Source: a virus. From it: a stretch of 46,756 nucleotides of DNA. A program made the translations under genes and the position numbers. Shown here in pieces: positions 3,327 to 36,686 of this stretch. Below the pieces are notes generated by a model. The model ran no database searches, was not told the DNA's origin, and saw only the letters and a list, made by a program, of their open reading frames with translations. The DNA lies in IMG/VR virus record IMGVR_UViG_3300045988_161382; one strand, given 5' to 3'. Each line of letters starts with the position of its first letter. Positions within the stretch are counted from its first letter, which is position 1.

Positions 3327-3620
3327 ATGAAATTATTTATATCACAGCCAATGGCAGATAAAACGGATAAAGAAATCTTAGATGAAAGAGAAAGAGTTTT
3401 GCACAATGTAAAAGAATTATTTCCTGATAAAGAAATTGAAGTGATTGATTCATTCTTTGATAGTGAACCAAAAACGCCTCTTTGGTATCTAGGAGAATCC
3501 ATCAAGCTTTTAGGTCAAACTGACATTGCTTATTTCTGCAAGGATTGGGAAAAGTATCGAGGATGCTGTATCGAACATGAATGTTGTGTTAGATACTCAA
3601 TTAAACATGTAGAGGAGTAG
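3327..3620 (+). CDS. DUF4406 / nucleoside 2-deoxyribosyltransferase-like protein
   Basis: 97 aa. MKLFISQPM... and ...TDIAYFCKDWEKYRGCCIEHE resemble the MKIYISGPM ... GWE.S.G..E pattern of that family. Recognition by eye only. Confidence 0.45.
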   Translation: MKLFISQPMADKTDKEILDERERVLHNVKELFPDKEIEVIDSFFDSEPKTPLWYLGESIKLLGQTDIAYFCKDWEKYRGCCIEHECCVRYSIKHVEE

Positions 3621-3634
3621 GGGGGAAGAATAGA

Positions 3635-3820
3635 ATGAATACAGTATATACATTTAGTAATGGTGTTCATGTTGATTCTTCAACAATTGAAAAAATTAAA
3701 AAAGCTTATTTTGAAATAGTAAAAAAAGAGCTTCCAGAAGAAGCTCTTAATTTCGAAGTCAATGATTTTATTCTTGAAGAAATCAAAACACAAATTAAAA
3801 ACAAAAAGATTTGCTTATAA
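3635..3820 (+). CDS. hypothetical protein
   Basis: 61-aa ORF with a GGGGGAAG RBS-like tract upstream. Confidence 0.5.
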   Translation: MNTVYTFSNGVHVDSSTIEKIKKAYFEIVKKELPEEALNFEVNDFILEEIKTQIKNKKICL

Positions 3821-4351
3821 GTGTTTTTCAACAAGATCTTGTAAAGTATAAGATATAATTTTTAATTCTTCATCTTTTGTTGCAGCACGTGTTTGTATTA
3901 GTTCTGTAAAAGGTTTTAATGCAATATCGATATTTTCACAATAAGTTCTATGTTTGGTTTTATATTCAATTTGAAAGCGAAGAGGTATCTCTTCACGAAA
4001 TAATTCAGGTACTTTTAGATTAGTTATAAATGATTGTCCAGGAGCTATAAATGTGCCACAAATATTTTTGAAAGGTGTAATTTCTTTTCTATATGAAAAT
4101 TCAGCTAAATCATGGTCACAAATAAATTTGGTTATTATAGCTCCACTTGATCCATAGTTTTTAATTATTAAATAAAACATTGGATCTTGGTAGTTCGCAG
4201 TTTTGCCACAAACTACAACATAGGGTCTAGTTGATTCTTCAATCATTTTACTATTTTGCTTTAAAGTCATTACTGAAATAACAATCGCAACAATACTTAC
4301 TGTTGTAGATGCAATTATTCCAATAATTTCAATAATATCAGTTGTTGTCAT
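3815..4351 (-). CDS. membrane-anchored hypothetical protein (moron; possible exclusion or abortive-infection function)
   Basis: 178 aa with RBS GGAGGT. N-terminal TM helix IIEIIGIIASTTVSIVAIVISVM. It is the only minus-strand gene inside the late region. Confidence 0.7.
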   Translation of the reverse strand: MTTTDIIEIIGIIASTTVSIVAIVISVMTLKQNSKMIEESTRPYVVVCGKTANYQDPMFYLIIKNYGSSGAIITKFICDHDLAEFSYRKEITPFKNICGTFIAPGQSFITNLKVPELFREEIPLRFQIEYKTKHRTYCENIDIALKPFTELIQTRAATKDEELKIISYTLQDLVEKHL

Positions 4352-20407: not shown

Positions 20408-21388
20408 ATGAGTTATGTTATGAAAGAACATTTAGCGAATAAAGCTAATTATGGTTCAAAAAGAGATTTATCAAAAATTAAATATTTAGTCATTCATTAT
20501 ACAAGTAATGATGGAGATAGTGATGAAGCAAATGGAAAATATTTTGCTAGAGAAATTGTCAAAGCATCTGCTCATTACTTTGTTGATGATGATTCAGTTA
20601 CACATTCAGTTCCAGATGATTACGTAGCTTATAGTGTTGGTGGTAAGTGTCAATCGGCTCATCATCCAATGTATCAAATCATCACTAACAGTAATTCATT
20701 GTCGATTGAAATGTGTGATTCCAATAAAAATGGTGTTGTTGAAATTACCGATAAGACATTAGAAAATGTATATGCATTAGCACGTGCGTTGATGAAAAAA
20801 TATAACATTGATATTGATCATGTTTATCGTCATTATGATGTAAATGGTAAATTATGTCCTAATTGTAATGGTTTACTAAATGATAACGTATGGCAAACAT
20901 TTAAGAACAATATTGTTAACTCTACAACTGGGGCATTAGGTACAGGCACTGTAGTTCCAGCTGCTGCTAAAAATGATAACTTAGATAGTTTGATTGCAAG
21001 AGGTCAACAACATTCAATCAATTTTACAGGTCATTCAATTGCAACTGATGGTGCATATGGTCCTAAGACTCGAGCAAATATTGCTAGATGCTTCCAACAT
21101 GCTATTAATTTGGATTATGGCAAAAACTTAAAAGTTGATGGTGCTTTTGGTAAAAATAGTAAAGCTGCTTTAGGTAAACACTATGTAAAACGTAAAGAAA
21201 CTCAATACATGGTTACAGCAGTAGAAATTGCATTAATGTGTAGAGGATATGATCCTGATGGTGTTGAATGTCCAGGTAAATTTGGTAGTGGATTAGAAGC
21301 AGCAGTAAAACAATTCCAATCAGATAGAGGATTGAAAGTTGATGGAATCGCAGGAAGAAACACTATTTTGAAATTAATGGGTGTTTAG
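20408..21388 (+). CDS. endolysin: N-acetylmuramoyl-L-alanine amidase (Amidase_2/PGRP) with PG_binding_1 repeats
   Basis: IKYLVIHYTSNDGD...ASAHYFVDDD...SLSIEMCDS...HVYRHYDVNGKLCPN is the amidase part. The C-terminus carries DGAYGPKT, LKVDGAFGKNS and GLKVDGIAGRNT peptidoglycan-binding repeats. Confidence 0.9.
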   Translation: MSYVMKEHLANKANYGSKRDLSKIKYLVIHYTSNDGDSDEANGKYFAREIVKASAHYFVDDDSVTHSVPDDYVAYSVGGKCQSAHHPMYQIITNSNSLSIEMCDSNKNGVVEITDKTLENVYALARALMKKYNIDIDHVYRHYDVNGKLCPNCNGLLNDNVWQTFKNNIVNSTTGALGTGTVVPAAAKNDNLDSLIARGQQHSINFTGHSIATDGAYGPKTRANIARCFQHAINLDYGKNLKVDGAFGKNSKAALGKHYVKRKETQYMVTAVEIALMCRGYDPDGVECPGKFGSGLEAAVKQFQSDRGLKVDGIAGRNTILKLMGV

Positions 21389-22437: not shown

Positions 22438-22839
22438 TTATTTGTGCTTTCTAGATATAATCTTCAACATATCAGCAATATCATCTGCCATTTCCATGAT
22501 TTCATCATCAGACATATTTTCTAAATCATACCCACCAAAATCGGCTACCATTTCTTGTTTTAAAATGAAGCTTAAGGCTTCTTGTGGAGTAGAGAAAGAC
22601 ATTTGAGAATCATCTGATTTATATTTGGCATCACTTCTACCTAATAAGTAATCAATAGTTACATTAAATATATCTGCAATCCTTTCTAAAGTTTCATAAT
22701 CAGGTTGTCTATCGCCACGTTCCCACTTACTTATTGATCCATTAGATACTTCTAGCAAATTAGCAAGTTCAGTCTGATTTAATTTTTTTTGCTCTCGCAA
22801 TTTTTTTAGCCTCATTGCAAAGCTTATTTTGTTTGTCAT
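22438..22839 (-). CDS. XRE-family CI-like repressor
   Basis: LKKLREQKKLNQTELANLLEVSNGSISKWERGDRQPDYETLERIADIFNVTIDYLLG is a canonical HTH_3 domain. It is divergent from the early promoter. Confidence 0.85.
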   Translation of the reverse strand: MTNKISFAMRLKKLREQKKLNQTELANLLEVSNGSISKWERGDRQPDYETLERIADIFNVTIDYLLGRSDAKYKSDDSQMSFSTPQEALSFILKQEMVADFGGYDLENMSDDEIMEMADDIADMLKIISRKHK

Positions 22840-31865: not shown

Positions 31866-32008
31866 TCTAAAATAAAAAACTTAAAATTTTCGTTTCTAGC
31901 GAGTGTTTGTTTTAAAGATGATTAACTTTACCAATTATCTAAAAACATTCGTTAGAATGAATATTTGACCAAGAAAATAACAAATTAAACAAAAAAGGAG
32001 AGATGAAA

Positions 32009-32857
32009 ATGCTAATAAAAAAGGATGAAGAACCGTTTTTCTATAAATTTCTTTCAATAGCAAAGGAAATCATCAGGAAAAATAAAAGATACACACCAGT
32101 ATTTTATGGCGACGATGAAAAGCTATATCTAGTATGTAACAACTATGCTGCAGTTTATGATTTTCAAAGTAATTTGCTTTTAGATGATGAATTAAGAGAA
32201 TTTGGAAAAATCCCTTATGAATTATCGGAATTACCAAACGGGGATATGAAATTGACAAAATCTGAACATTTTAGCTGTCAAGAATCATATTTAATTGCAA
32301 TTAGAAATTTTTTCAAACATACAGGGTATATGTCGAAAAAGGTTTTTTCTGTTGATAAAGGTGATCCTTACAAGATTCCTAAAATCGTTGAAGTGACACA
32401 AAGATGGATTTCTGAAGAAGATAATAAGATTTTGGACAAGATAGGATTTCCTGATATCTATATGTTGGATGCAAAACGTGTTGATGAATTTATTACGCTT
32501 GCTGGTGATTGGAACCCATATTATTTGGCAGCTTGTGATCAAACCGAATTAAATGGTGGACAAACCACTATCACAATGACAGTTTACTTCAATATCAAAG
32601 AAGATCCTAAGAAAAGTGCTTGTGATCAACAAACAATGGAACTTTTACAACAACCTACGAACTATGACGAATTCGAAGATATGAATGTAGAAGAACTTGA
32701 AGATGAAGTGGCTTCTGAAGGTGTAGTTGAAGCAACTGCTGAACAAGAAAAAATGATTGAAGATGATTATCAAGAAGAGGAACAATTGGATGCACTTCTT
32801 GAAGATGCTATTGTTCCAGAGGAATTAGAAGATGATTTCGACCCAATGCTCGCTTGA
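32009..32857 (+). CDS. hypothetical protein with long acidic C-terminal tail ending DDFDPMLA
   Basis: About 282 aa. ATG 32009 is better spaced from AAGGAGAG than ATG 32003. No family recognised. Confidence 0.6.
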   Translation: MLIKKDEEPFFYKFLSIAKEIIRKNKRYTPVFYGDDEKLYLVCNNYAAVYDFQSNLLLDDELREFGKIPYELSELPNGDMKLTKSEHFSCQESYLIAIRNFFKHTGYMSKKVFSVDKGDPYKIPKIVEVTQRWISEEDNKILDKIGFPDIYMLDAKRVDEFITLAGDWNPYYLAACDQTELNGGQTTITMTVYFNIKEDPKKSACDQQTMELLQQPTNYDEFEDMNVEELEDEVASEGVVEATAEQEKMIEDDYQEEEQLDALLEDAIVPEELEDDFDPMLA

Positions 32858-33320: not shown

Positions 33321-33815
33321 ATGGGATTGTTTGATTTAGTTAGAGAAGAGGAAGCAAAGAAAAAAGCTGAGGAATCAGCTAAAGAAGATGTAAAAGATAC
33401 AGTTGTCAAAGAAGCGAAAAAGGTTGAAGAAGCACCAAAAGAAGCTGATCAACAACCTGCTCCAGTTGCAAAAGCTGAAAAACAAGCGACTGAGGAGGTA
33501 AAACAAGCAGTAGAACAAGCAACTGAAATTGCAGAAGAATCTAAAAAAGAAGAAAAACCCGCAAGTAAAAAAGTACCTAAGAAAAAAGCAAGTACTGAAA
33601 AAACTTACAAGTATCCATTTGGAGTCTACTCTGAAGGAAGATTGATTGATATTTCTTCTTATGGGTTTGTAGATGGCCAAGATTATACAGAAAAGGAAAT
33701 CACGGACATCATGTTACAACACCGCCATTATGAGTTTGCAGGAACAATGGAATACAGCTATATCGAGGATGACAATGTTCTTGTTGTAACTGGAAAACAA
33801 CATAGAAAAGGCTAG
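33321..33815 (+). CDS. ubiquitin-like (Prok_Ub / PRTRC protein C-like) protein with Lys/Glu-rich N-terminal extension and C-terminal Gly
   Basis: RBS AGGAGGA. The first ~95 aa are low-complexity K/E/A-rich. The last ~70 aa (TYKYPFGVYSEGRLIDISSYGFVDGQDYTEKEITDIMLQHRHYEFAGTMEYSYIEDDNVLVVTGKQHRKG) end with Gly (GGC 33810-33812) directly before TAG. Confidence 0.55.
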   Translation: MGLFDLVREEEAKKKAEESAKEDVKDTVVKEAKKVEEAPKEADQQPAPVAKAEKQATEEVKQAVEQATEIAEESKKEEKPASKKVPKKKASTEKTYKYPFGVYSEGRLIDISSYGFVDGQDYTEKEITDIMLQHRHYEFAGTMEYSYIEDDNVLVVTGKQHRKG

Positions 33816-33824
33816 GTGGTTAAC

Positions 33825-34502
33825 ATGGCCAATAATTACACAAGATATAAATTTTACGTGATTGGAGTTGGTGGGACTGGTTCTCTTTTAGCAAGAGACC
33901 TTCCCAAACTTCTTTTAGGAACATCACATAAAATGATGCTCATAGATGGTGATACAGTTGAATCTAAAAACATTGAACGCCAAGGATACCAAGCTCAAGA
34001 CGTTGGTGATAATAAGGCTTTGGCATTATCGAGAAAAATCAATTCTCTTTATCCAATAGAGTGTGAGTTCGATGATAAATATTGCACTTATGAAAGTTTA
34101 TTTGCTCTTATCCAAGATGATAAGGGATATGTTCCTGTAATTATAGGATGTGTCGATAATGATGCTACAAGAATGATTTTAGAAAAGGTATTTAAAAAGC
34201 TTGATGATGTTATTTATATCGACTCAGCAAATAGTGAATATGAAGGAAATATCTATATCACAACAAAAAAGAATGGTATTCAACAAAGTAATTTGAGAAG
34301 TCAATGTTACAAATTTGATTTAGATAAGCACCCACTTGACGTTTCTTGTCAAGAACAGGCCGCCAAAGGAAATGTTCAGTTTCTAGTAACCAATGCAAAA
34401 ATGGCTGTATCGATATTGGAACATTGTAATGCTTTAATCATGTATCAGTTGAAAGAAGGTGTTCAACTTGTCAACAGATTTGAGACAGTTTTTTACGACT
34501 GA
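33825..34502 (+). CDS. ThiF/E1-like adenylyltransferase
   Basis: YVIGVGGTGSLLARDL (Rossmann GxGGxG), MLIDGDTVESKNIERQ, VIIGCVDNDATRMIL and YIDSANSEYEGNIYI are the canonical ThiF/MoeB/E1 blocks. ATG 33825 lies 5 nt after AGGTGG. Confidence 0.8.
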   Translation: MANNYTRYKFYVIGVGGTGSLLARDLPKLLLGTSHKMMLIDGDTVESKNIERQGYQAQDVGDNKALALSRKINSLYPIECEFDDKYCTYESLFALIQDDKGYVPVIIGCVDNDATRMILEKVFKKLDDVIYIDSANSEYEGNIYITTKKNGIQQSNLRSQCYKFDLDKHPLDVSCQEQAAKGNVQFLVTNAKMAVSILEHCNALIMYQLKEGVQLVNRFETVFYD

Positions 34503-35310
34503 TCATGTTCCAGATAAATTAGAACCTAACACCTATGAAAAGTTTTTCATCAACGCTTTAAGCTATACATCACCAAAAGCTATAGATGATTTAACGATTG
34601 CATTTGAAGAAGATGAGTCTAATGATCTGATACAAAACTTTCAAGAAATTGACTTATTAGATGAACATGTTTTTCCAGATGTTATCGATTATGAATTTGA
34701 AGAAGTTATATTAAGTTCTTTTTTTGACAGAAACGAATTTGCAGTTGATGGTTTTGAAACATTGATTGAAGGATTATACGATGAACAGAATGAAGTGTTC
34801 ATAAATGTAGATTTTATTATTCCACAATTGAAAAGCGTTTTTAAAGACATATATACAGAAGCCAAAGGATGGTGTGAGTACTCGGATGAAACATTATCCG
34901 AACCTAAGGTTGATTATTACAATCTAGGTACCACTGAAATACAGTTCCTGTATATCAAATTCAAAAATAAGGGAAAAGCTAGGAAATTCAGAAAGCTTTA
35001 TAAAAAGAGCTATCAAATAAGAGCAATGCTATATGGCTTTGGATATCGATTTATAAATAGCCAATTCGTTAAAGGAAACGTAAGAAACATTGAAATTGAA
35101 GGATGGGAATATCCTGATTTGAATTTTGGAGTGGCAAATGAAGCTCTAGAAATCATGGCCAATGTTTCAAAAAAAGAAAGACACAATACGGAATTGTTGC
35201 AAATAATAGTCGAAAGAAAAGTAGATGATTGTGATTATAAATTTACTTCAAATGCTTTGATTTCAGCTCTTTCAAACACATTAAAGACAAAAAATGAGGT
35301 GATCATGTAA
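34468..35310 (+). CDS. orphan acidic protein of the Ubl-E1-E2 cassette
   Basis: About 280 aa with no in-frame ATG before residue ~190. Probable TTG 34468, 8 nt after GAAAGAAGG (or GTG 34459). Overlaps the E1 stop by 35 nt and the E2 start by 1 nt. No JAB (HxH..S..D) or other catalytic motif seen. Confidence 0.55.
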   Translation: MSTDLRQFFTTDHVPDKLEPNTYEKFFINALSYTSPKAIDDLTIAFEEDESNDLIQNFQEIDLLDEHVFPDVIDYEFEEVILSSFFDRNEFAVDGFETLIEGLYDEQNEVFINVDFIIPQLKSVFKDIYTEAKGWCEYSDETLSEPKVDYYNLGTTEIQFLYIKFKNKGKARKFRKLYKKSYQIRAMLYGFGYRFINSQFVKGNVRNIEIEGWEYPDLNFGVANEALEIMANVSKKERHNTELLQIIVERKVDDCDYKFTSNALISALSNTLKTKNEVIM

Positions 35311-35927
35311 TGAGAGAAGTAATCATTCGTTTAAACAATAAAAAAGATGATGCTGAATTATGTATCAAGCAGAATGAAAAGATTACATTCAAAATGCTTT
35401 CAAAAGAAGAACTGGTGAAACTTTTTAATGAATTTTTTATCAAAGATCAGCATGAGAAAGCAAACATAAAATTGTTTTCTGAAAACACGATAGGTGCTGG
35501 TATTGATTATACCGTTATAAAGCAACCTGAGCATATGCAATATGTCACCTATAATAATCGCTCATACAAAATCAATTTTCCCAATGCAATTTACATCGTT
35601 CGATATGACAACAAAATCGTAAAAGGCATCCAATGTTATTGCTATAAGAAATACAAAGGCGGAGATACCGAATTGTATGAATATGCAATGCCAAATATGT
35701 TGACAGGAAATGCAATGTGCATGGGTAGTGCCGATAAAAGGATTGTTGATGGTGATATTGAAGCTGCTTTGAATAAAATTATCGCTACACCTTACTCACA
35801 TGGAAATTTTGATGGAATAAAGGGATTTTCAACAACAGTCAGCTATTTTGAATATTTAGAAGAAAATCCATTTCCTTACAAACTTTTAAGAAAATTGAAC
35901 AGGAAATTAAGAGATGTCAAAGTGTGA
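35310..35927 (+). CDS. E2-like protein (Prok-E2_B / PRTRC protein B-like)
   Basis: TELYEYAMPNMLTGNAMCMGSA resembles the HPN-x(3)-G-x(2)-C E2 catalytic core (Cys137, TGC 35718-35720). It is followed by ATPYSHGNFDG, as in Prok-E2_B proteins. RBS GAGGTGA. Confidence 0.6.
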   Translation: MREVIIRLNNKKDDAELCIKQNEKITFKMLSKEELVKLFNEFFIKDQHEKANIKLFSENTIGAGIDYTVIKQPEHMQYVTYNNRSYKINFPNAIYIVRYDNKIVKGIQCYCYKKYKGGDTELYEYAMPNMLTGNAMCMGSADKRIVDGDIEAALNKIIATPYSHGNFDGIKGFSTTVSYFEYLEENPFPYKLLRKLNRKLRDVKV

Positions 35928-36114
35928 TGAATTAAGAAAATTACTTCTCGAATGGGGTGAAGATAATTATTTGCCCCTCAAGAAAAAAATTGCATATCTC
36001 GAGAATGAAAATTATCGTTTGAGAATGCAAAATTTAAGAGTCAAAGAAAGAAATGAAAGACTCGCATTGATTGTAAAGAAAAGAAGAGAGGAAGCAAATT
36101 ATGAAAATAGATAG
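35914..36114 (+). CDS. small coiled-coil hypothetical protein
   Basis: 66-aa ORF that overlaps the E2 gene end by 14 nt. Confidence 0.5.
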   Translation: MSKCDELRKLLLEWGEDNYLPLKKKIAYLENENYRLRMQNLRVKERNERLALIVKKRREEANYENR

Positions 36115-36325
36115 AGGAATTGTTCGATGTGATAGATGTAAAAGAGTTTTCAAAACCAAAGAGGTCAATAATTATAAAATCTCATATCAAGCAGGTGGAT
36201 TGAAAAGTGATGGTGGTATGGGACTTGTAAGAAAGAAAGCAGAAATCTGTTCCGATTGCAATATGGATTTTGAAGACTTCATGCGCAATAAACCAGTAGC
36301 AGGACGTGATACAAATGACAGGTGA
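36101..36325 (+). CDS. zinc-ribbon hypothetical protein
   Basis: 74 aa with CDRCKRVF...CSDCNMDF (CxxC...CxxC). Confidence 0.55.
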   Translation: MKIDRGIVRCDRCKRVFKTKEVNNYKISYQAGGLKSDGGMGLVRKKAEICSDCNMDFEDFMRNKPVAGRDTNDR

Positions 36326-36686
36326 AGAATGGTCAAAACTTTGTAAAGAGCGTGGTGTTGTTGTCCTCGATGCAAATTACAAAGATATGACACAAGATGA
36401 TGCTTTAAAGTATTTTGATTTATTAAAAACTGCAATGGATCATGCTTTTGCTAGAAAATATGATTTGGAAACCGGCCAATATGAAGATTGTGCATTGCCT
36501 GAAGGGTCTACATATTACGAAGATGATATGAACAAGAAAGTTGCCTGTTGTGAATGCGGAAAGAAAATCATGTACGGAGCTTCTTATACATCAAGAATCA
36601 TCTTGAATAGCGGTGGATTTGGCTATGCAGTATGTGAAGATTGTTATTATAAAAATGACATGAAAGATATCGTTAAGAAAGGATGA
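36315..36686 (+). CDS. zinc-ribbon hypothetical protein
   Basis: ATG 36315. Contains CCECGKK...CEDCYYK. Confidence 0.55.
   Translation: MTGEEWSKLCKERGVVVLDANYKDMTQDDALKYFDLLKTAMDHAFARKYDLETGQYEDCALPEGSTYYEDDMNKKVACCECGKKIMYGASYTSRIILNSGGFGYAVCEDCYYKNDMKDIVKKG

Follow-up and report, generated by a model that had tools for sequence, protein, structure and literature searches.

A reduced and divergent relative of the PRTRC cassette, with a putative ubiquitin-like conjugation pathway, in the early operon of a siphovirus-like phage

Introduction

Can a temperate phage with a low guanine-plus-cytosine (GC) content carry a ubiquitin-like conjugation pathway of its own among its early genes? The question is raised by positions 33321-35927 of IMG/VR virus record IMGVR_UViG_3300045988_161382, a DNA of 46,756 nucleotides that was analysed as a whole (hereafter the window). 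An earlier note, made from the sequence of the window, had read four plus-strand genes following rusA as a cassette for a ubiquitin-like (Ubl) modifier, an E1-like enzyme, an orphan protein (hereafter the middle protein) and an E2-like enzyme, and had compared it with the PRTRC cassettes of plasmids and integrative and conjugative elements (ICEs).

PRTRC ('ParB-related, ThiF-related cassette') is described by the models TIGR03734-03742 and corresponds to the 'type 6d' operon, predicted in 2006 to be a ubiquitin-like conjugation system (Iyer, Burroughs and Aravind, 2006; PMC1779556). The canonical form (ParB-E-C-F-B-A-ThiF) was found on proteobacterial plasmids (Cupriavidus, Azospira and Photobacterium), has a RefSeq annotation in Ralstonia phage Dina, and also occurs in phage YO105_4 and Burkholderia phage BgVeeders33. 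A 2026 paper reported PRTRC in Burkholderia phage AB2, with a function that 'has not been studied'.

The feature in the window is real and conserved. It is read here, with moderate confidence, as a reduced and highly divergent relative of PRTRC, in which a modifier would be adenylated by the E1, relayed to Cys137 of the E2 and put on a target amine. Coordinates are collected in Table 1.

The E1-E2 pair

The proposal that the second gene encodes a ThiF/E1 adenylyltransferase was borne out by a Pfam match above cut-off (Table 1). The best NCBIfam matches were ThiF (E 5e-16) and PRTRC_ThiF (TIGR03736, E 6e-16), both under their equivalog cut-offs (58.5 bits against 144.75 for TIGR03736), and the scan also matched ThiF/MoeB models. 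When the E1 family was aligned with four PRTRC ThiF proteins using hhalign (99.6%, E 3e-24, 186 columns), the comparison of profiles showed homology to PRTRC ThiF, though the protein is not an equivalog. Residues invariant in 14-15 non-redundant E1 orthologs were the GxGGxG loop, R52, Q53, K64, D111-N112-D113 and R116, and Cys175 was the sole invariant Cys outside the GCVDND strand; hhalign placed Cys175 opposite the conserved Cys of 'PSCS' in PRTRC ThiF. The nearest relatives in the PDB were Cap2, a ThiF-type protein (9egc), UBA5, TcdA, Uba4 and SUMO E1 subunit 2, with Cap2 (7tsx/7tsq, E 3.4e-6) at the top of a single-sequence search. Rhodanese, UFD and zinc-site motifs were all absent from this short E1. 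PHROGs returned weak 'unknown function' matches for the E1 and none for the other three cassette proteins.

The E2-like protein had 35 relatives among 5.8 billion proteins. Prok-E2_D was matched by 23 of the 26 aligned relatives (best E 3.4e-11), and the relative from locus L004 matched PRTRC_B (TIGR03737, E 1.9e-10). Aligned with four genuine PRTRC-B proteins using hhalign, the family matched over 146 columns (87%, E 4e-6), and both Cys137 and His164 were paired with PRTRC-B residues ('YxMPN...iCiGsA' with 'P.fN...iCiGS', and 'TpYSH' with 'saFtHP'). In the type 6d E2s, a conserved His further downstream of the Cys replaces the His of the HPN motif (Iyer et al., 2006; PMC1779556), and the Cys and downstream His of the window protein fit exactly this description. 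Taken at the level of family profiles, the protein is a divergent member of Prok-E2_D, i.e., of the PRTRC-B family. In control searches, Cupriavidus PRTRC-B matched Prok-E2_D at 1e-57, Cupriavidus protein C matched Prok_Ub (PF14454) at 2e-28, and PRTRC-A was JAB-N plus Prok-JAB in Pfam. The link to PRTRC protein B drawn in the earlier note therefore stood, but its family label did not; given the first of these controls, the label has to be Prok-E2_D instead of Prok-E2_B.

An AlphaFold2 (AF2) model of the E2-like protein had a predicted local distance difference test (pLDDT) score of 89.4, and the order of its modelled secondary-structure elements (beta-meander, Cys loop, C-terminal helices) is loosely compatible with a ubiquitin-conjugating (UBC) fold. 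In BFVD, four significant structural matches to this model were found, every one an uncharacterised phage protein; one (A0A172Q0C7) belongs to Acinetobacter phage ME3, which encodes ThiF and an annotated PRTRC-A too. ThiF-family E1s lie next to or near annotated PRTRC-A or PRTRC_A-domain proteins in two jumbo phages, ME3 itself (L156) and Bacillus phage vB_BauM_KLEB27-3 (L157). Among GenBank phages, neither megablast with the region nor tblastn with the E2 gave a match, so that no annotated close relative exists there.

The putative modifier

The small protein encoded by the first gene joins a variable linker, rich in Lys, Glu and Ala, to a conserved C-terminal domain of ~70 amino acids (aa). 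Without exception, the 17 non-redundant orthologs terminate in Q[HY][KR]KG-stop. An exhaustive HMMER search for the domain in 1.84 billion representatives gave 45 clusters only, and in every genuine one the domain stops at the last residue, a Gly (QHKKG, SQKHG, VGNRG, DFKKG). The terminal Gly was found at the exact C-terminus in ~55 diverse relatives, its codons vary among orthologs with all four (GGG, GGA, GGC and GGT) in use, and the gene was immediately upstream of the E1 gene in every locus with enough flank. The AF2 model of the 75-aa construct (Table 1), built from a shallow alignment of 12 sequences, had a pLDDT of 83.5 and a predicted template modelling (pTM) score of 0.71, with elements in the order beta-hairpin, short strand, one alpha-helix and four beta strands.

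A fusion protein ties this family to PRTRC. In P0215 (L092/L093: 8001-8864), a modifier-like domain is internal, ends in KGG and is followed by a JAMM domain with an exact signature (HSHHEMGAFWSPTD) and a PRTRC_A match (E 2e-5). Its gene is directly upstream of ThiF and two genes after ParB in a prophage-like region, and a few genes further on is a 216-aa protein with weak similarity to Prok-E2_D (hhalign E 0.0095; PF14460 E 0.02). KGG followed by JAMM, beside ThiF, is how a modifier precursor joined to its protease would be expected to look. The invariant terminal Gly, this JAB fusion and an [RK]-K-G ending common with PRTRC-C make a modifier activated at its C-terminal Gly the best reading of the small protein, as far as comparison of sequences can tell.

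The domains of genuine PRTRC-C proteins end in G-x-K-G, followed by a stop in Azospira, five residues in Cupriavidus and 62 residues in Dina. The Dina protein C (L158: 3058-3447) is 129 aa long, with a Prok_Ub domain ending in ...AVGRKG ahead of the 62-aa extension. Such an extension would need JAB processing, whereas the window modifier would be made mature; because it already ends in Gly, no JAB peptidase, whether for processing or for deconjugation, should be needed for its maturation.

Several further observations concern this family and its surroundings. P0215 lies between an N6/N4 DNA methyltransferase and ThiF in a bacterial genome (GCA_050789255.1), with a 578-aa ParB and RecU upstream and an SNF2 helicase downstream; the 223-aa protein after ThiF in L092 was considered as an E2 and found not to be E2-like. 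On the C. perfringens plasmid pCPCPI53k-r1_1 (L089: 5599-5982), a 127-aa protein upstream of ThiF has a three-part architecture like that of the small protein: an LTLMSMF motif is followed by a linker rich in Lys, Glu and Ser and then by a 70-aa domain that ends in FNKG-stop. The ThiF gene there has its own ribosome-binding site (RBS), SSB and helicase genes are nearby, and downstream proteins of 320 and 110 aa have no family matches. The small protein upstream of ThiF on Butyrivibrio pNP144 was rejected as a member, as it ends in KNN and not in Gly.

At the N-terminus, ~45 of 55 family members start with a hydrophobic-hydrophobic-[D/S/E]-hydrophobic-hydrophobic pattern followed by acidic residues; examples are GLFDLV (window 33324-33341, aa 2-7), DLWSLL, QLNLFG, DDLFG and YDLFG (P0172-P0212). 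A strict regular expression for the motif was matched by 30 of the 55 members and by 11% of background open reading frames (ORFs). By sequence, the motif resembles sliding-clamp-binding peptides of the QL[SD]LF type. On Azospira pAZI09, dnaN is immediately upstream of the PRTRC genes.

The middle protein

The earlier note had described the third gene product as an acidic orphan, and it remained one, with zero matches in Pfam, NCBIfam, PHROGs and PADLOC and 16 homologs only in 5.8e9 proteins. It has a conserved L-x-D-L-R-Q-[YF]-[FI]-T motif at the N-terminus and, in most orthologs, also a basic FKNKSxARKxRKxY segment. The conserved C-terminal 'EV' was rejected as a protein motif, since it is explained by the Shine-Dalgarno (SD) sequence of the E2 gene. 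Its place is always between E1 and E2, and no other component of the cassette evolves as fast: identities to the window proteins, given as E1/modifier/E2/middle, were 98/91/75/61% at L050, 81/79/62/39% at L055 and 65/59/45/26% at L004. The values at L050 suggest that the middle and E2 genes may be swapped together. Alignment with PRTRC A, E and F using hhalign revealed no similarity (E 0.55-0.9). The protein sits where PRTRC-F does, immediately upstream of E2, and by position and behaviour it would correspond to the 'rapidly diverging novel alpha-helical protein' of type 6d, i.e., PRTRC-F.

Comparison with PRTRC

Kinship of the E1-E2 pair with the PRTRC cassettes of plasmids and ICEs, as first proposed, was upheld by the hhalign results for both proteins. 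The two systems are further alike in a small protein ending in [basic]-K-G, in a rapidly diverging uncharacterised protein just upstream of E2, in the Cys and downstream-His active site of the E2 and in having replication or partition genes beside them on mobile elements. They differ in gene order (modifier-E1-X-E2 in the window, E-C-F-B-A-ThiF in PRTRC), in hosts, which for the window are Firmicutes, and in scores that for the window are far under the TIGRFAM cut-offs. No relation of the window modifier to Prok_Ub could be detected, and it has an N-terminal motif and a Lys/Glu-rich linker. Nor does the window have a recognisable PRTRC-E or PRTRC-F, or a JAB (PRTRC-A): the absence of a JAB or deubiquitinase (DUB) partner, noted before, was confirmed in that the JAMM/JAB motif H-x-H-x(6-16)-[ST]-x-x-D was absent from all six-frame window ORFs of >=60 aa, and JAB models had zero matches among the cassette proteins, the JAB fusion being confined to one distant relative. 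ParB had no match in the ~20 window ORFs scanned with Pfam, which included all neighbours from 25.5 to 38.5 kb. Lacking JAB, ParB, E, F and Prok_Ub, the window cassette is no PRTRC member in the TIGRFAM sense; it is, on the evidence of the alignments, a homologous, reduced variant of the same E1-E2 chassis. The suggestion that such a cassette was new to the early operon of a low-GC siphovirus was only partly retained, because a complete PRTRC is already annotated in phage Dina and noted in Burkholderia phages, although none was found in Firmicutes siphoviruses.

Distribution of the cassette

The E2 family was present in 75 IMG/VR loci and in five genomes, from Thomasclavelia, Stoquefichus, Massilimicrobiota and other Erysipelotrichaceae, and the source names of relatives pointed to Faecalibacillus. 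The four-gene order was kept across these divergent phages (~75 viral loci and five genomes). Some copies were on contigs of 284-455 kb and on scaffolds of bacterial metagenome-assembled genomes (MAGs), consistent with integrated prophages. Clusters of the cassette proteins held from hundreds to ~1,900 member sequences, and they were abundant in human-gut prophages. Further afield, many plasmids of Firmicutes carried E1 relatives with small upstream proteins; PLSDB had 335 such records, of which 128 were from Bacillus. On L001, the cassette-bearing contig that diverges most, the gene string of the cassette includes, ~2 kb upstream, a gene with a metallo-beta-lactamase fold (3589-4323) that has a weak match to the Anti-Pycsar protein Apyc1.

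Comparison of close relatives revealed that the cassette is kept or lost as a whole. A close RusA with sufficient DNA downstream of it was present at 53 loci; 49 of these had the cassette and four did not. In the latter (L139, L141, L142 and L143; e.g., L141:5515-7360), RusA was 85-87% identical to that of the window and the slot was filled by two proteins, one PcfK-like (161 aa; PF14058, E 3e-8) and the other PcfJ-like (467 aa; PF14284, E 3.5e-30). With the small protein of the window, the PcfK-like one has the N-terminal motif and a Lys/Glu/Gln-rich linker in common (70% identity over aa 42-81), but it lacks the C-terminal domain. The occurrence of PcfK/PcfJ in the same slot of close relatives shows the cassette to be an exchangeable accessory module. 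A search of the literature on PcfJ/PcfK function and on phage Ubl/E1/E2 systems found nothing specific. The cassette is accordingly described here as an accessory module in the early operon of temperate siphovirus-like phages whose hosts are Erysipelotrichaceae of the gut (Faecalibacillus and its relatives).

Weighing of the evidence and alternative explanations

Several results weigh against a PRTRC-type conjugation pathway in the window. By itself, the E2-like protein of the window is under the Pfam and NCBIfam cut-offs (Prok-E2_D, PF14460, E 8e-4 and 19.6 bits against a gathering cut-off of 25; PRTRC_B, TIGR03737, E 6e-3). The structural comparison with UBC/E2 folds proposed in the earlier note was negative, as Foldseek gave no significant UBC-fold match to the model in the PDB (best E 0.17, template modelling score ~0.14), and sequence searches of the PDB with the profiles of the E2 family and of PRTRC-B returned nothing meaningful. 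Prok-E2_D is without any solved structure, so the E2 nature of the family rests on sequence-profile arguments from 2006. For the small protein, the claim that its last ~70 aa have the beta-grasp pattern of Prok_Ub or PRTRC protein C is unsupported, because profile and structural tests both failed: no Pfam or NCBIfam model matched the window domain or diverse orthologs at E<=5, its 37 relatives from the search of representatives had zero relevant Pfam families at E<=0.01, hhalign against PRTRC-C gave E 0.37-0.45, and Foldseek found no significant beta-grasp match (best PDB E 0.23), its weak top matches being protein G B1 and POTRA, with ubiquitin, ThiS and MoaD not among them. Conservation of the terminal Lys-Gly could owe something to its AA[AG]-GGN codons, which in most loci overlap the RBS region of E1. 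For the Gly, such an artefact was ruled out by the use of all four codons and by its retention where the RBS of E1 is separate; for the preceding Lys the caveat stays. Finally, no PRTRC-type system that has been studied experimentally or characterised biochemically was found in the literature searched.

The failure to find homology or fold evidence for a Ubl leaves room for an explanation in which the E1 and E2-like proteins act on another substrate (a host protein of ThiS/MoaD type or another phage protein) and the small protein is an adaptor, scaffold or regulator. The use of endogenous ThiS/MoaD has been proposed for operons without their own Ubl (Iyer et al., 2006; PMC1779556), and the sharing of N-terminal motif and linker with the otherwise unrelated PcfK-like protein suggests docking or tethering. 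An invariant Gly at the exact C-terminus of ~55 diverse members, encoded by four codons, is hard to explain for an adaptor, however, and both the KGG-JAB fusion beside ThiF, a classic arrangement of modifier precursors, and the invariant position directly upstream of E1 argue in the same direction, so that this explanation is considered unlikely.

Activation of the C-terminal Gly could also serve a different end, either transfer to a non-protein acceptor (lipid, nucleotide or DNA) or formation of a sulfur-carrier thiocarboxylate for thio-modification, as in ThiS, MoaD or TtuB. Sulfur-transfer enzymes are indeed among the closest ThiF-family E1s (NCBIfam ThiF/MoeB; Uba4), the cassette is embedded among DNA-metabolism genes, and DNA methylases stand beside related cassettes (N6/N4 at L092, N-6 beside Azospira PRTRC). 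Yet no rhodanese domain, cysteine desulfurase or PP-loop ATPase is present in or beside the cassette, and a conserved E2-like protein with invariant Cys and His is the hallmark of a thioester relay to an amine, which makes either variant quite improbable.

A partition or maintenance device stabilising an episomal prophage, which is how annotation usually reads PRTRC, is very improbable: PRTRC on plasmids is habitually linked to ParB, a ParB lies two genes upstream at the related L092 locus and the partition interpretation was repeated for phage AB2 in the 2026 paper, but the scanned window ORFs include no ParB, the long contigs and MAG scaffolds of relatives are consistent with integration, close relatives without the cassette carry PcfK/PcfJ instead, and no experiment backing a partition role for any PRTRC was found in the literature searched.

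Gene layout and genome setting

The four ORFs, the motifs VIGVGGTGS, LIDGDTVESKNIERQ, GCVDNDATR, YAMPNMLTGNAMCMGSA and PYSHGNF within them, the Gly164 end of the first and Cys137 in the fourth were all verified as the earlier note had placed them. Mechanical ORF calls start earlier for two genes, at GTG 33816 for E1 and at GTG 34459 for the middle gene. Ahead of all four starts, an SD sequence is embedded in the 3' end of the preceding gene, and at the junction of the middle and E2 genes the stop and start codons overlap (Table 1). The translational coupling first proposed for the four genes is supported by this SD placement and by the TAATG overlap, and intrinsic terminator-like sites interrupting the four genes were not found on the plus strand.

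Table 1. Features of the cassette region in window coordinates.
Feature	Position	Strand	Remarks
SD AGGAGG	ahead of ATG 33321 (small protein), 8 nt upstream	+	
Putative modifier, 164 aa	33321..33815	+	MGLFDLV motif, linker ~aa 10-95, 70-aa domain ending ...QHRKG-stop
Candidate Ubl-like module, aa 93-164, last residue Gly164	33597..33812	+	AF2 model of 33588-33812
SD AGGTGG	ahead of ATG 33825 (E1)	+	
E1-like ThiF-family adenylyltransferase, 225 aa	33825..34502	+	PF00899 E 3e-18, above cut-off
SD AAGGTG	ahead of TTG 34468 (middle protein)	+	
Acidic orphan (middle protein), 280 aa, TTG start	34468..35310	+	no family match
Middle/E2 junction	35293..35312	+	SD within last middle-gene codons (E-V-I-M-stop); TAATG stop/start overlap 35308-35312
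SD GAGGTG	ahead of ATG 35310 (E2-like)	+	
E2-like protein, 205 aa, Prok-E2_D / PRTRC-B family	35310..35927	+	P128-N129, Cys137, His164 invariant

With a GC content of ~32%, the window has the look of a complete genome of a temperate siphovirus-type phage, comprising a terminase, a block of portal, capsid and 940-aa tape-measure genes, an amidase endolysin (20408-21388), a divergent Xre/CI repressor (22438-22839, minus strand) and the early operon. No integrase-sized gene was obvious from ORF sizes beside the repressor, and no tRNA genes were found in positions 1-46756. RusA (PF05866, E 9e-30) is upstream of the cassette, and further upstream are YqaJ, an antirepressor, DUF1351, a helix-turn-helix protein, RecT, a G39P-like loader and SSB. 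With YqaJ, RecT, the G39P-like loader and SSB upstream, the cassette was correctly placed in an early recombination/replication operon.

Other neighbours were conserved in relatives with and without the cassette. A 284-aa protein (32003-32857) between SSB and RusA, overlapping the RusA start, has a very acidic C-terminal tail (EDMNVEELEDE...DDFDPMLA) and no match in Pfam or PHROGs. Just downstream of the cassette, two small Cys-rich proteins (36101-36325 and 36306-36686) with CxxC...CxxC patterns gave weak zinc-ribbon or zinc-finger matches.

Relation to other known systems

Among systems characterised in recent work are CBASS (cyclic oligonucleotide-based antiphage signalling system) Cap2, Bil (bacterial ISG15-like) and Bub/6E, and the PRTRC/type-6d class is not one of these. 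Bil and Bub/6E resemble the cassette in that Ubl, E1 and E2 each have a gene of their own within one operon, and a role in phage-host conflict has been shown for Bil itself. Unlike them, the window system has no DUB, its E2 belongs to another family (Prok-E2_D, by the profile comparison above), and it is encoded by a phage and not within a host defence island. Type II CBASS is similar in that its Cap2, an E2-E1 fusion, was the closest PDB relative of the window E1 in a single-sequence search, and in a thioester relay from E1 to E2, which for the window is conjectural; it differs in that the window E1 and E2 are separate proteins, the E2 is of another family, and neither a CD-NTase substrate nor Cap3 is present. 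When the signature proteins of Bil (BilA-D) and type II CBASS (Cap2 fusion, CD-NTase and Cap3) were searched with PADLOC, only the E1 domain was matched, through CBASS E1-E2 models; the cassette is therefore not a known defence system. The lambdoid TAPI Ubl with its TAPK JAB/NlpC protein (Iyer et al., 2006, Table 1 row 5) is likewise a phage-encoded ubiquitin-like element, but it is in the tail module, lacks E1 and E2 and belongs to other families.

Discussion

If the cassette is a reduced PRTRC relative acting in conjugation, the chemistry that we infer would run as follows. The small protein would be made mature, with its invariant Gly164 as the reactive end. The ThiF-type E1, in which the ATP-site residues are conserved, would bind ATP and adenylate the carboxylate of Gly164. 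The acyl group may then move to the invariant Cys175, the residue aligned with the conserved Cys of PRTRC ThiF, and by way of Cys175, or directly, or both, it would pass by transthioesterification to Cys137 of the E2-like protein, where His164, invariant and downstream of the Cys, may stand in for the canonical His of HPN. In the last step, the modifier would be transferred to an amino group of a phage or host target. The middle protein, which is translationally coupled to E2 and co-diverging with it, would most likely be a specificity factor (an E3-like adaptor) or the substrate itself.

As to purpose, such cassettes recur next to genes for recombination, replication and partition in both phages and plasmids, and the middle and E2 proteins evolve rapidly; these features point to a possible role either in controlling the DNA metabolism of the mobile element or in conflict, as counter-defence. 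A more specific proposal, put forward only tentatively, is that temperate phages of gut Firmicutes have a self-contained, deconjugase-free tagging pathway with a modifier of a hitherto unclassified fold, no recognisable beta-grasp, that is tethered by an N-terminal docking peptide, and that early in infection or induction this pathway would place a covalent mark on a factor of replication/recombination or on a protein of host defence. If this were true, it would give a first functional handle on the PRTRC/type-6d class and would be a case of modifier replacement within a conserved E1-E2 chassis; a modifier that is not beta-grasp would mean that such a chassis is able to adopt an unrelated tag.

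PRTRC/type-6d cassettes are widespread on plasmids, ICEs and in some phages. With four small coupled genes, no need of a protease or ParB and abundance in gut prophages, the cassette described here offers a compact system in which protein conjugation by this class, and its targets, could be tested, and its interest lies in being a compact entry point to PRTRC biology with a modifier that may be no beta-grasp protein. For the phages themselves, an accessory function related to conflict is suggested by the fast evolution of the middle/E2 pair and by the PcfK/PcfJ module that can take the slot of the cassette, and such a function could bear on the dynamics between phages and their hosts in the gut.

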